This document shows positions 7,093 through 60,693 of a stretch of 64,000 bases of DNA, in pieces. Within the stretch, counting starts at the first letter, position 1, and every line of letters begins with the position of its first letter. The DNA is from Octopus vulgaris (Eukaryota): the NCBI GenBank assembly GCA_951406725.2, contig OX597833.1, forward strand, positions 15,376,001-15,440,000, given 5' to 3'. A program made the translations under genes and the position numbers. The notes under the pieces were generated by a model that saw only the letters and a program-made list of their open reading frames with translations, was not told where the DNA came from and made no database searches.

Positions 7093-7239
7093 TCAGTTGG
7101 CCAATGTCCACGCAGTGGGACTAAACGCAGAACCTTATCGTTGGGAATCAAGCTACTTACTACACACCCACTTCTACGCCTATAGCTACTCACCATGCAG
7201 CCACTCCTGCGCTTATATACATACATACATACATACATG

Positions 7240-8429
<1,190 letters not shown>

Positions 8430-8954: not shown

Positions 8955-9347
8955 TGGAAGCACTGGAAGCACTCCGTCGGTTACGACGATGAGGGTTCCG
9001 GTTGTTCCGAATCAACGGAACAGCCTGCTCGTGAAATTAACGTGTAAGTGGCTGAGCACTCCGCAGACACGTTTACCCTTAACGTAGTTCTCGGGGATAT
9101 TCAGCGTGACACAGATAGTGACAAGGCCGGCCCTTTGAAATACAGGTACAACAGAAACAGAAAGTAAGAGTGAGAGAAAGTTGTGGTGAAAGAGTACAGC
9201 AGGGATCACCACCATCCCCTGCCGGAGCCTCGTGGAGCTTTAGGTGTTTTCGCTCAATAAACACTCACAACGCCCGGTCTGGGAATCGAAACCGCGATCC
9301 TATGACCGCGAGTCTGCTGCCCTAACCACTGGGCCATTCCGCCTCCA
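8955..9347 (-). mobile_element. tRNA-derived SINE family B, full length
   Basis: Head TGGCCCAGTGG...GGTTTCGATTCCC; tail ...AACCGACGGAGTGCTTCCA; 12-bp TSD ATGAAATATAGC (8943-8954, 9348-9359). Confidence 0.92.
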
Positions 9348-11209
9348 ATGAAATATAGCATTCAATGAATAGCGAAATGGATGGTTTGTAAAGGGTAGTG
9401 TCCGCCTGGTGGTAAATATTTTTTTATGCTCAGTCAGTGATAGGAAGAAGCTTAAATAAACAGTATTAAATAATTTCGAAATATTTTATGTTCTCTGGTG
9501 AGATGTTAATCTTACCATAGTTTTTCAAGACCTCGGGTCAAGTGAAGCAATGTCAATTAATCATAACGAAATATCAAATACGAATTTTGATTCATGATTT
9601 AATAGTGAAATCTCTTCAAAGCTCTGCACTCTAATTCACGAAACATATATCATCGGCATATTGATATTAATACAGAGTATCTAATATCATCTATAATCTA
9701 TAATATAAATTGGACATGGGTGATTGTTGTATTCTTCATTGTCTTGAGATTCACAGCCAAACGACTGGATGGATTTGCTAGAAAAATGGCACACATGTGG
9801 AGCCATGTGCATAGATTGGAATGTAGTTTGTATTTTTTCCTACCCCCCCCCCGTACTTACCGAGAAGATCGATTAAACTTTTCTAATGTAATTTCCCTCG
9901 TTCTTCCGCCATTAAAATGACCAATTGCTTAGGAGCTGTTTTCTGACGGGGTGGGGTCAGGAAATTTTCACATAACTGGAGGCTCCACTCGAAACAGGGG
10001 ACCCGAAATGATTAGGTTGAGAAACGCTGTTATAGATTATGCCTAACCGTAAACGATCACAGCCACATCATCCAAACAGACCGGGTTAAACCGGGCTTAA
10101 CTTCTAGTTAAGCATATAAATCTGAAGAATTTGTGCAAATGTTAGCGACAGGTCCATTACCATTTTTAACTCACCAAGTTTTTTTCTGCGTTTATATTTC
10201 AAATAAATAATTTTTAACATTCTGTATTTGACAAAATAATTATATAACAATTTTTTGCGACATTATATAAATAACATTATCAAATTAAGGTTTATCAAGT
10301 ATTCCGATATATTCAGCTACCAGCGGAAGAAACATCGTTTAAGAAGGTGGTATCTAAAAGTAATTGAAGGTCTTCTAATTTATCAAACGTGGTGGTTGCA
10401 TGAACGAAGTTCTAATTTCTCAAACATGTTAGTTGAATAAATGAAGTTAATAAAGCAAAGAATTGCATAAATTTATAAATGAAGTTAATAAAGTAAAAAT
10501 TTTACACCATCTAGTGAAGATTCTCTTTATTTTGTGGGGCTTGTATCAGAACAAACATTTGTCCTCGGAGGTTGTCATATTAACATCATAAACTCATCGT
10601 TCTTTTATGTCATTGGAATGCGGGGAAATTTGAATTTCAAAGAAAACTGGAAATGAAATTAATTTAATAATAATCTTTGAGGACCTCGTGTATTCTATTA
10701 TTGTAACGACTTCAACTGCAGATATTTAATTTCATCATTTCGCTCAAACATTTAAAAAATAATGACTACTTTCAAGAAAGAAAATATAAAATACCAATAC
10801 AAAAAACATCAAGAAGTCATTGAATGTAGGGTTATTAATAAAAATTATGATAATATAATAAAATGTCGTCTTTATTTAGAAAGCATCATGAAAGAATTAC
10901 ATTGAATGGTATGACGTGTGTCATAGAACAGCACTTTTATTTTAATTGTTTTCCTAAAGCAATCACATCTGAGAATTGAAACTTTCTTTAATATCAGTTC
11001 ACCAGTATAGTACGATTTTGTGAACTGCTGGGGTAATGTTATCAGTAATATTTCAGACATGATTTCAACTTCAAGTAAGTATGAAATTGATTGCTACTGT
11101 TATATCTTCGTTACATGAATTTTCGTACTGGTACGATTCGCCGGACTAGATAGGAGGTAAAGCAGATGGGCCTCTGTGGAAGTATAAGGAAGAGCTTAAA
11201 CTAATGTAG

Positions 11210-14909: not shown

Positions 14910-14913
<4 letters not shown>

Positions 14914-15291
14914 AAGCACTCCGTCGGTTACAACGACGAGGGTTCCGGTTGATCCGAATCAACGGAACAGCCTGCTCATGAAATTAACGTGTAAGTGGCT
15001 GAGCACTCCACAGACATGTGTACCCTTAACGTAGTTCTCGGGGATATTCAGCGTGACACAGAGAGTGACAAGGCCGGCCCCTTGAAATACAGGTACAACA
15101 GAAACAGGAAGTAAGAGTGAGAGAAAGTTGTGGTGAAAGAGTACAGCAGGGATCACCACCATCCCTGCCGGAGCCTCGTGGAGCTTTTAGGTGTTTTCGC
15201 TCAATAAACACTCACAACGCCCGGTCTGGGAATCGAAACCGCGATCCTATGACCGCGAGTCCGCTACCCTAACCACTGAGCCATTGCGCCT

Positions 15292-15294
<3 letters not shown>
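14910..15294 (-). mobile_element. SINE family B
   Basis: Near-identical to 8955-9347; flanked by (TA)n. Confidence 0.92.
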
Positions 15295-15483: not shown

Positions 15484-16176
15484 CCAAGAATAAGTTCATT
15501 GCGCCATCTTTTATTTCATTTTCGTTTCTTTTATTTGGTGAATTGAAAAATATTTACTTTGTGTCGTTACACGAATTAAAACTCTCGTGGAATCATCCAG
15601 TGGATAAACAAAGATTTTCTAATTGACTTATCCTAAAAGTGGTTTGTAAACAATTTGTCACAACATAGAAGTGTGCATTGGAAAAAGAAAACACTGTTAA
15701 CAGAAGGAAAGCAAACATCTGAAACGACATATTTAATGTTTATTCAAACTAATTGGCGTATAAGCTAACTAGGCCTAATATTTGTGAATCTATTATGTAA
15801 GGCATCGCCGACCGCGTGCGTATGTGTATGCGTATATGCGTACAAATGTGTGTCTATTTTCGAGTAGAACTGAAATAAATATATAAACATACATACATGC
15901 ATACAATAACACACGTGTGTATGTGTGTGTCTGTGTGTGTAGGCGTGTGTAGGTGTGTGTATAGAAATAATTTAATTTCATTTCAGCATTTGCATGTAGC
16001 GACATTTCTATAATCGCACACATATGTAAGAGGCTAATTGTTCCTGAAAAGGCATAAAAAGAATACTTACACATGCATTCGTAGATAAGGAGAAACATGT
16101 GAATATTATAGAAATATGTAATAACTTAATACAGAATTAATATTTCTATATTCTTTACACTGATACGATTAATACA

Positions 16177-16565
16177 GTGGATGCGCAATGGCCCAGTGGT
16201 TAGGGCAGCGGACTCGCGGTCGTAGGATCGCGGTTTCGATTCCCAGACCGGGCGTTGTGAGTGTTTATTGAGCGAAAACACCTAAAGCTCCACGAGGCTC
16301 CGGCAGGGGATGGTGGTGATCCCTGCTGTACTCTTTCACCACAACTTTCTCTCACTCTTACTTCCTGTTTCTGTTGTACCTGTATTTCAAAGGGCCGGCC
16401 TTGTCACTCTCTGTGTCACCCTGAATATTCCCGAGAACTGCGTTAAGGGTACACGTGTCTGTGGAGTGCTCAGCCACTTACACGTTAATTTCACGAGCAG
16501 GCTGTTCCGTTGATCGGATCAACCGGAACCCTCGTCGTCGTAACCGACGGAGTGCTTCCATTCCC
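16177..16565 (+). mobile_element. SINE family B
   Basis: Full length; TSD ACGATTAATACA (16165-16176, 16566-16577). Confidence 0.92.
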
Positions 16566-17563: not shown

Positions 17564-17947
17564 TGAAGCACTCCGTCGGTTACGACGACGAGGGTTCCGG
17601 TTGATCCGAATCAACGGAACAGCCTGCTCGTGAAATTAACGTGTAAGTGGCTGAGCACTCCACAGACACGTGTACTCTTAACGCAGTTCTCGGGGATATT
17701 CAGCGTGACACAGAGAGTGACAAGGCCGGCCCCTTGAAATACAGGTACAACAGAAACAGGAAGTAAGAGTGAGAGAAAGTTGTGGTGAAAGAGTACAGCA
17801 GGGATCACCACCATCCCCTGCCGGAGCCTCGTGGAGCTTTTAGGTGTTTTCGCTCAATAAACACTCACAACGCCCGGTCTGGCAATCGAAACCGCGATCC
17901 TATGACGCGAGTCCGCTGCCCTAACCACTGGGCCATTGCGGCTCCAC
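17564..17947 (-). mobile_element. SINE family B
   Basis: TSD AAATCCACTATTA (17551-17563, 17948-17960). Confidence 0.92.
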
Positions 17948-42639: not shown

Positions 42640-42822
42640 ATACTTTATAATTAGGTTTGAGCAAAGATTTACTTCACCACATACCGAAGTTTAGAAATAG
42701 CAGTCAAAAAATCTTAGCTATTCCTTCTGCCTTAAAAGGGGCTCCCCGAAAAACCAAAGTACTTGAGAGCAATCCACGCAGGCAACAGGGAAAAAAGACA
42801 ACGAAAATCATATAAATATATA
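42640..42822 (-). repeat. Diverged solo copy of the terminal repeat of the 58416-59190 element
   Basis: TCACCACATACCGAAGTTTAGAAATAGCAGTCAAA..TAGCTATTC shared with 58416-58599. Confidence 0.7.
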
Positions 42823-48580: not shown

Positions 48581-48967
48581 TCTCTCTCTATATAAACGGC
48601 AGTTTGTCTGTGCGTGTTTCTGTGTGTCTGTTTGCTTGTACCCTCACCCTGACCACGGCTTTCAACCGATTCTGATGAAACTTGACACACACATAGCCCA
48701 ATGTCATAATTCAAAACTAACGCAGCGAAAATTTTGAAAAGTTCCCCCCAGTTCTGAAAAAAATCGATAAATTCGACATGGGGTCGAGAATCAGAAACAC
48801 AAACCACAAACTGTCTAGGGGACGCAACTCCACCTTTTTTAACTCTCAAAAAAAAAATTTACCATCATTTTTTTCCATTTTTTTGCTATTTTTTGGCTAT
48901 AACTCTCTAAAAATGCTTTATAGTTATTTCCCTTACAAACCTGAGCAACGCCGGGCGATACTGCTAG
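48581..48967 (+). mobile_element. Non-autonomous Helitron (shared 3' end, unrelated 5' half)
   Basis: A|TCTCTCTCTATATAAA...CCTGAGCAACGCCGGGCGATACTGCTAG|T. Confidence 0.85.
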
Positions 48968-58368: not shown

Positions 58369-58415
<47 letters not shown>

Positions 58416-58418
<3 letters not shown>

Positions 58419-59184
58419 TAAGTAATTAAGGGTTTAGCAACGATTTGCCTCACCACGCACCGAATTTAGAAATAGCAGTCAAAGAGTTATAGCTATTCTT
58501 TCTACTAAAAGGGAGATCTCAGTAAAACCACAGCACTTGAAAGGCAAACACAGACAGGCAAGAGAGAAAGAAATGACCACAATCGATCATACAATATTAA
58601 GTCACCTACGGACGTACGTTTCGAAATTAAGTTTTAGGAAAGCATAAGAATTAGATAATTATGTCTTACCCAACTTTTTTCTCATCAGCGTAGGACACTA
58701 CAATTATGAATAATTGTATATTAAATTTCGAGGTACTAGAAGACATCATCTCAACTCAGTATCAGAGCGAGCTAAAGCCGTTACCAGTATCACCAAATTC
58801 AAAGTGTGAATGAAAGTTTGTGTCACCAACCCCCTCCCACCAGCGTGCAGCCAAGACAAGATGTTGTGGTCATTTACTGGGATGAAATATGGTTATCAGT
58901 AATAATATAGGGTGAAATTAATTAATTTGGAATAATCATTAATTTCACCAAGTAGATTTCGGCATGTAAAAGCCCCATTCGAGGAAAGTTTAAGTAATAC
59001 TAAGTAATTAAGGGTTTAGCAACGATTTGCCTCACCACACACCGAATTTAGAAATAGCAGTCAAAGAGTTATAGCTATTCTTTCTACTAAAAGGGAGATC
59101 TCAGTAAAACCACAGCACTTAAAAGGCAAACGCAGGCAAAAGAGAAAGAAATGACGACAATCGATCATACAATATTATTACTGA

Positions 59185-59190
<6 letters not shown>
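58416..59190 (-). mobile_element. Retrozyme/pLTR-like element: 1.3 tandem units of 582 nt with a canonical hammerhead, inside (TA)n
   Basis: ~180-bp direct repeats 58416-58599 / 58998-59177; short 5' inversion ATATTATTACTGATAAC matching 58892-58908. Confidence 0.88.
58605..58694 (-). ncRNA. Canonical type I hammerhead ribozyme with extended stem II
   Basis: cctacg-CTGATGA-gaaa[~50-nt imperfect hairpin]tttc-GAAA-cgtacg-TC-cgtagg; predicted cut between 58611 and 58610. Confidence 0.92.
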
Positions 59191-59265
<75 letters not shown>

Positions 59266-60205: not shown

Positions 60206-60249
60206 TATAATATAACTGACATTTTAAACATTTTCTATTAGTTAGTGGA

Positions 60250-60546
60250 TGGAAGCACTCCGTCGGTTACGACGATGAGGGTTCCGGTTGATCCGAATCA
60301 ACGGAACAGCCTGCTCGTGAAATTAACGTGTAAGTGGCTTAGCACTCCACGGACACGTGTACCCTTCACGTAGTTCTCTGGGATATTCAGCGTGATATAC
60401 AGAGTGTGACAAGACTGGCCCTTTGAAATACAGGTACAACAGAAACAGGAAGAAAGAGTGAGAGAAAGTTGTGGTGAAAGAGTACAGCAGGGTTCACCAC
60501 CACCCCCTACCGGAACCTCGTGGAACTTTAGGTGTTTTCGCTCAAT
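60250..60546 (-). mobile_element. SINE family B, 5'-truncated
   Basis: Consensus match. Confidence 0.88.
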
Positions 60547-60693
60547 ATCACATGGAATATAGATACACATTTGTCAATTAAACGCTACAGATGTGGGGTT
60601 TAAGATTAATTACACAGATTAATTACAACAATATCAAAGGTGTGGAATGTATGCCACAGGTCCAGCAGATCTTTGGGGGGTAGGGGGAAAGTC

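Follow-up and report, generated by a model that had tools for sequence, protein, structure and literature searches.

A young non-coding hammerhead family in the octopus genome with Penelope-like insertions into TA microsatellites

Penelope-like elements (PLEs) leave a characteristic set of insertion features, described by Craig et al.: copies are truncated at the 5' end, form partial tandems, lie beside an inverted copy, carry a tail of 30-40 bp at one end and target (TA)n (Craig et al., 2021; PMC8557442). In the in vitro system based on anole Poseidon, the tail corresponds to the sequence separating two internal start sites of reverse transcription (Frangieh et al., 2024; PMC11167929). The same account has both DNA strands cut and extended, predicts the protein to be a dimer, and gives unprocessed RNA as the main substrate, with hammerhead mutants still inserting (PMC11167929). 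Animal non-LTR retrozymes have been proposed to be non-autonomous PLE derivatives, and in the same preprint one of nine tested retrozyme dimers cleaved (bioRxiv 10.64898/2026.07.22.740005), a proportion that calls for caution about cleavage of the element described below. Here we describe a 582-nt element of Octopus vulgaris for which the best reading is an animal non-LTR retrozyme, non-autonomous and PLE-mobilised, whose tail is roughly three times as long as usual. With high confidence, we consider it a young non-coding family with Penelope-like insertions that a Penelope-like reverse transcriptase (RT)/GIY-YIG protein probably copies in trans.

The element was studied in a 64,000-nt stretch of contig OX597833.1 (the window), part of a 2.8-Gb genome assembled in 227 contigs. 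The whole insertion occupies window positions 58416-59188 on the minus strand, where a short inverted arm, 0.3 unit and one full unit are flanked by (TA)n on both sides. Unit positions are numbered as q = 58998 minus the window position on the minus strand, which places q1 at 58997 and q582 at 58416. The full unit (q1-582, 58416-58997, minus strand) has its 3' end at 58416, the first of two fixed ends (site 1). Upstream lies a 5'-truncated, pseudo-LTR-like unit (q399-582, 58998-59177, minus strand), followed by an inverted second arm (q90-106, 59172-59188, plus strand) that ends within the second 3'-end cluster (site 2, q95-111). The segment between both clusters, q1-111 (58887-58997, minus strand), is the tail. 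A target tract of (AT)23.5 lies at the 3' end of the element (58371-58417), and the other flank consists of (TA)19 and then (AG)19 (59189-59263).

Much of this anatomy had been recognized in a sequence-only reading of the window. Its direct repeats of about 180 bp with a 582-nt period are there, with 95% identity between 58415-58599 and 58997-59177 and a period of 578 beyond a 4-nt indel. The upstream repeat is a mosaic in which older-subfamily alleles at q436-459 sit within a young haplotype, a 42-nt allele combination with a single occurrence genome-wide; either gene conversion or a template switch is suggested as the origin of the tract. The 5% divergence between the repeats is owed mostly to this tract and not to age. 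The 5' end of the insert was also placed correctly about 11 nt downstream of the predicted ribozyme cut, since 59177 corresponds to q399 and the 11 nt of q388-398 are absent. Ahead of it, the reported inversion of internal sequence proves to be the reverse complement of q90-106 (17 nt, 59188-59172), overlapping the direct arm by 6 nt (59172-59177). Because it ends at q106, inside site 2, this inversion is the second arm of the insertion. The window copy has a long arm of 1.3 units, a short arm of 17 nt and one hammerhead.

The unit has no blastn match to the other repeat families of the window, in line with the earlier remark that it has no visible likeness to the 364-nt family. That family is probably the second young one that we see here, about 385 bp with flanks and 93-97% identical among its copies at 8964-9350, 14911-15294, 16175-16561, 17565-17947 and 60248-60547; the copy that was read sits between (TA)n tracts, and the family has neither similarity to the 582-nt unit nor a hammerhead match. 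The window also contains an open frame at 7125-8105 on the plus strand, whose second half, judged by a motif, seems to resemble a fragment of a LINE-type reverse transcriptase.

A type I hammerhead spans 58605-58694 on the minus strand, with its predicted cut between 58611 and 58610 (after q387). The CUGANGA, GAAA and NUH core elements and stems I-III are present in type I order. Stem I pairs CCUACG (58694-58689, q304-309) with CGUAGG (58610-58605, q388-393), the core consists of CUGAUGA (58688-58682, q310-316) and GAAA (58622-58619, q376-379), and the stem III palindrome, ACGUACGU, is followed by GUC and the predicted cut. Stem II, singled out earlier as unusually long, is 59 nt of irregular helix (58681-58623) with a G-C closing pair. 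A strict type I scan of the 64-kb window matched 58605-58694 alone, and a relaxed scan returned one further weak match at 48672. Rfam reported no hammerhead over the window at gathering scores, nor over 58400-59200 at E<=5, for which the 59-nt stem II may be the reason. The motif, described in the sequence-only reading as fully canonical, is so in the core and stem I, and its stem III in a lone copy has just 2 bp and a palindromic tetraloop. An unconstrained fold (-17.1 kcal/mol) is more stable than the hammerhead fold (-13.9 kcal/mol), and the lone hammerhead is absent from the minimum-energy structure. The palindromic stem III suggests that cleavage would depend on a dimer.

Conservation of the motif was assessed within the 582-nt family (F1) and across its sister families F2-F4, which are introduced below. 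Polymorphic columns within F1 number 0 of 13 in the core and 0 of 18 in stems I and III, against 61 of 280 elsewhere. Covariation in the stems, which the sequence-only reading had proposed to look for among related copies, is present: in nine rows from F1-F3, 4 of the 10 stem I/III pairs change on both sides and stem I is paired in every cell, the rows being related to one another and their kinship inflating the shuffle control. The F2 counterpart of the stem III palindrome is ACGCGCGU. Among 19 F4 cores, 18 have U3, combined with A8 in 14 and with G8 in 4, and C3-G8 is replaced by U3-A8 in 14 of 19; U3-A8 is a core covariation reported for PLE hammerheads (PMC4209133). By these sequence comparisons, the hammerhead motif is evidently under selection. 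Several further type I hammerhead families with a palindromic stem III, unrelated to this clan of families, occur in flanking DNA (L098:45, L099:208 and 455, L142:3161, L080:2366-2475 and L033:1359-1446).

One 24-mer of the unit has 908 exact matches genome-wide and a control has 0. A first look gave 118 matches from the 40 scored of 2492 candidates, with full units 95-99% identical. The element is a young, dispersed, non-coding family residing in hundreds of TA microsatellites. To avoid choosing copies by their likeness to the query, we sampled the first 100 of the 908 matches in genome order, which represent 67 loci. Arms were called by a maximal-segment trim that left out pieces below 81% identity or shorter than 25 nt, yielding 106 arms; under a strict-identity caller, divergence boundaries had broken up older copies, and a lenient one had overrun into the opposite arm. 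A subset of 93 arms leaves out the 6 whose 3' ends lie elsewhere and 7 that are too short to hold the search motif.

The 3' ends of the 106 arms fall almost entirely into two clusters, 61 at site 1 (q570-12) and 39 at site 2, with 6 elsewhere. A (TA)3 motif lies within 22 nt of 92 of 97 3' ends, compared with 6.4% of window positions. The two clusters are used in combination: among 32 head-to-head arm pairs in the 67 loci, 27 have one arm ending at site 1 and the other at site 2, 5 include an end of the remaining class, and none joins like with like. All 39 site-2 arms carry a tail of 95-111 nt, outside the 30-40 nt of PLE tails. Of 29 inner junctions, 16 show an overlap of at least one nucleotide. 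Between opposite arms, 102 of 5725 sites differ (1.8%), as opposed to 3.8% in comparisons with other loci; in 31 of 34 loci, the two arms resemble each other more than they do the average outsider (exceptions: L074, L235 and L238), a sample that contains loci chosen by similarity to the query. Derived alleles tell the same way, 123 being common to all copies within a locus and 19 private. The two arms of an insertion thus appear usually to come from one RNA source. Several loci, for example L192, L241 and L234, have a site-1 arm that is devoid of the tail and nevertheless reaches beyond the tail arm on the 5' side, so folding back of one arm cannot have produced the other and the two were templated separately.

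Taken together, the copies display 5' truncation with a partial tandem, an adjacent inverted 5'-truncated copy, a tail on one side and a (TA)n target. By analogy with described PLEs, the partial tandem, inverted arm and one-sided tail of these scars are a PLE signature. We also considered whether recombination or a DNA transposase could have spread the family as a satellite or DNA-level repeat with an incidental hammerhead, as local tandem duplication and the mosaic tract do occur. The insertions are, however, dispersed and single, their polarity combines a fixed 3' end with scattered 5' ends, their arms pair by the two-site rule, and the hammerhead covaries; terminal inverted repeats, or two fixed ends, were absent in the loci seen. 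Of all the explanations weighed here, we give this one the least credence.

Some loci have further peculiarities of arrangement. At L080, L220, L235, L243, L216 and L029, the ends of both arms almost coincide in unit position, frequently at short palindromes, and two-armed insertions of this kind, of which there are many, form near-perfect inverted repeats. At L292 (G000:C11:47595000-47601500), a 1.5-unit insertion is duplicated 2.7 kb away with zero differences, representing either a recent segmental duplication or an assembly duplicate.

The position of the window copy's 5' end had led the sequence-only reading to tie that end to the ribozyme cut, and a linear hammerhead-cut RNA run off by reverse transcriptase would indeed leave inserts starting there. 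Besides the window copy, which starts 11 nt past the cut, five loci (L017, L062, L072, L074 and L083) start at q391-398. Such starts seemed a possible rule among loci picked by similarity, and the position-ordered sample ruled it out: 47 of the 93 arms reach q403, of which 3 end within q385-403 and the other 44 continue past it. In the cut-site bin (q389-403), the stopping rate is 0.064, an ordinary value among 15-nt bins that otherwise range from 0 to 0.15, and lies below the highest well-sampled rates, 0.10-0.13 at q449-493. The 5' ends are scattered, the random endpoints that the earlier reading had itself named as speaking against it. Because 44 of 47 arms read through the cut-site region, the start of the window copy near the cut is chance; we regard a cut-site start as already largely refuted and run-off from a cut linear RNA as extremely improbable. 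A fixed 3' end instead sets the point of permutation; it is at q582, which lies 195 nt downstream of the cut. Read-through this free also implies a template continuous across the cut site. From the proposal that the insert was reverse transcribed from a ribozyme-processed circular or tandem RNA, a template longer than one unit and a non-coding retroelement survive, and the start at the cut site does not.

The unit has little coding capacity. Its longest stop-free frames are 59-92 aa, with no tblastn match below E 0.7, and it has no open reading frame (ORF) with the RT and GIY-YIG domains of an autonomous PLE. Long frames beside L260-L262 are simple repeats, as read for L261, and provide no ORF-linked copy. 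One could suppose that the units are broken 3' ends (pLTRs) of an autonomous PLE and not an independent element, given that PLE copies are mostly 5'-truncated with a hammerhead near the 3' end. The sequence-only reading had named longer copies that reveal the unit as a piece of a coding element among the findings that would count against it. We looked for such copies among the 30 top and 67 position-ordered loci, where copies exceeding one unit run head-to-tail into their own unit and never into an ORF. The four sister families are likewise head-to-tail and contain no coding relic. We therefore consider the broken-end explanation very unlikely.

Autonomous PLEs with RT and GIY-YIG domains do reside in the genome; their copies end in (TA)n and show partial tandems, inverted arms and tails. 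Family A (L111-L119 and L126, for example G000:C7:95740500-95747500) is young and 98% identical, with many intact 781-residue frames combining RT with a GIY-YIG domain at the C terminus. It has (TA)n ends, a tail of about 34 nt with a small hairpin, and only a degenerate hammerhead-like motif. Its C-x4-C-x2-C motif is of the kind given for Neptune/Nematis by Craig et al. (PMC8557442). Family B (L120, L122, L134, L138, L140, L142 and L146) has inverted arms, (TA)n ends, a tail of about 30 nt and, roughly 140 nt before its 3' end, a type I hammerhead that is degenerate and includes the palindrome AGUACU; the broken-end explanation draws on this arrangement. Tails in families A and B are about 30-35 nt, as against the 95-111 nt of the 582-nt family. 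Neither of these two families has DNA sequence in common with the unit. A GIY-YIG scan, in which 150 of 6136 candidates were scored, 36 fetched regions, a walk through relatives and a variant-motif scan turned up sister non-coding families and no ORF-linked copy; none of 56 PLE-type, 40 clan and 30 variant-motif loci held an autonomous PLE sharing sequence with the unit. Two clan copies (L123:5051 and L132:2733-2913) abut the 3' (TA)n tract of family A PLEs, through either a shared target or nested insertion.

The clan comprises four families with non-coding units of 550-585 nt that are 61-73% identical. F2 has 1309 candidates, the same anatomy as F1, a tail of about 98 nt, and longer copies with a covarying hammerhead; walking through relatives added F3 (562 nt, 1651 candidates) and F4 (about 554 nt, 1709 candidates). 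The window itself contains an F2 copy at 42640-42822 on the minus strand, which is 78% identical over 42640-42809. It had been described as a diverged solo repeat, and a relative it is, namely a 5'-truncated copy of this older sister family as opposed to a solo left by recombination.

Outside the ribozyme, the best-conserved blocks flank site 1. There, a predicted 10-bp junction helix pairs 59046-59037 with 58967-58958 (q534-543 with q31-40; 58958-59046, minus strand); it closes only across the unit junction, encloses site 1 and is kept in all four families. A predicted tail hairpin just upstream of site 2 (58911-58949, minus strand) is conserved in the four families as well. Together, the helix and the site-2 hairpin fold with z = -2.8. 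Changes in the junction helix across families are one-sided (G-U/A-U) and none is two-sided, so its support is conservation and not covariation. From these predicted folds, we infer that the junction structure may be the landing pad of the PLE enzyme, which would explain the need for a partial tandem. A monomer cut at both hammerheads (q388 round to q387) would hold the whole predicted structure.

Our preferred reading of the family as a PLE-mobilised passenger would then work as follows. A PLE protein would bind the structure formed across the unit junction and nick both strands of a (TA)n tract. Priming of one cDNA would take place at q582 and of the second at q95-111, as a rule on RNA of a single source, and the truncated ends of both cDNAs would be joined, often by a few shared bases. 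The template was intact across the hammerhead cut, so it was either an uncleaved tandem RNA or a religated circle. Copies with two hammerheads would release a monomer holding the whole junction structure, and whether such a monomer, circularised, would regenerate tandems seems to us evenly balanced. Two complete hammerheads are present in 3 of the 93 arms and in arrays such as L287; the window copy, with one hammerhead, would be unable to release a monomer by itself.

Whether the template is a circular RNA is likewise a question on which we lean to neither side. The strong version, in which the sole template is a hammerhead-cut, religated 582-nt circle copied more than once round, is a serious candidate that we place somewhat short of an even chance. 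The cut site is crossed freely, with 12 of the 93 arms exceeding one unit and 5 crossing two cut sites, and haplotypes remain linked across it. The cut-to-cut circle folds with z = -3.9 against 30 shuffles, the hammerhead is conserved across families that are 27-39% diverged, and circles are known for coral, mussel and axolotl retrozymes (PMC7229834). Units within arrays, which reach 5.2 units in F3, are also near-identical (0-1% divergence within loci versus 3.6-4.4% between loci). A linear, uncleaved tandem transcript would, however, be read through in the same way, and complete hammerhead pairs are as rare as stated. Local duplication after insertion is apparent in some arrays, as in L287, where two adjacent units have four variants in common, and in L289, so that long arrays need no circle; we rejected them as proof of a rolling circle on this ground. 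At L029, the distal unit and the inverted arm have two private variants in common that the main unit lacks, and the single PLE system studied in vitro still gave insertion with hammerhead mutants (PMC11167929). Contigs from four sequencing runs, presumed to be of RNA, cover most of the unit including the cut site and are uninformative on ends, strand and circles.

A fuller picture would make the clan a set of ribozyme-cut RNA circles carrying a landing pad of helix and hairpin with two priming sites 100 nt apart, where a single protein dimer, working from the two strands of the TA tract, copies a single circle. This is a tentative proposal that we think is probably not correct in full. If true, the clan, with copies that are young and number in the hundreds, a rule of strictly one arm per site and a tail of three times the length known, would supply a natural model for how the tandems, inverted arms and tails of PLEs originate, and would suggest that the genome contains a driver PLE lineage beyond those found. 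The preferred reading, of mobilisation in trans by a PLE protein, matters in several ways. The two-site scar of PLEs is seen directly in a protein-free retrozyme, a template intact across the cut site bears on the role of the hammerhead in the retrozyme and PLE cycle, and the junction structure of about 190 nt is a testable candidate for the binding and priming element of the enzyme.

The 582-nt family is no new class of element. It resembles EN+ PLEs as described in PMC8557442 and PMC11167929 in its 5' truncation, partial tandem, adjacent inverted truncated copy, one-end tail and AT-rich or (TA)n target, and in having a hammerhead upstream of the priming sites and a start site in a stem-loop. 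It differs from them in its 582-nt unit without an ORF, its 95-111-nt tail instead of 30-40 nt, and a hammerhead that is canonical in core and stem I where theirs is minimal. Non-autonomous PLEs of Chlamys, such as MRC1, are likewise PLE passengers without coding sequence that have pLTRs and insert as multiple head-to-tail copies (PMC8557442). As presented there, their 3' ends are similar to those of an autonomous family, and they belong to a clade without canonical hammerheads, whereas the 582-nt unit has a hammerhead and its parent was not found in our searches.

We found no paper on this 582-nt family or on a tail of about 100 nt, and the supplements of retrozyme and PLE papers may list it. 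The closest match among described elements is with animal non-LTR retrozymes, which are non-coding, low-GC, head-to-tail units with a type I hammerhead and a short palindromic stem III (PMC7229834; bioRxiv 10.64898/2026.07.22.740005). As in those elements, no LTR, PBS or PPT was seen, PLEs occur in the same genome, and copies are mostly monomers and dimers. At 582 nt, the unit is longer than the 170-400 nt retrozymes of Cervera & de la Pena 2020 (PMC7229834) and is covered by the range of 51-972 bp given by Li, Clavereau & Pollet 2026 (bioRxiv 10.64898/2026.07.22.740005). It departs from the retrozymes described in these sources in its 59-nt stem II, its 95-111-nt tail and a predicted junction structure common to four families. 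None of the 56 PLE-type loci, drawn from the 150 scored of 6136 candidates, offered a pLTR homologous to the unit. The published case for PLE mobilisation of retrozymes, in the parts of this literature that we cite, is argued from co-occurrence and pLTR homology; here it is argued from the insertion scar.
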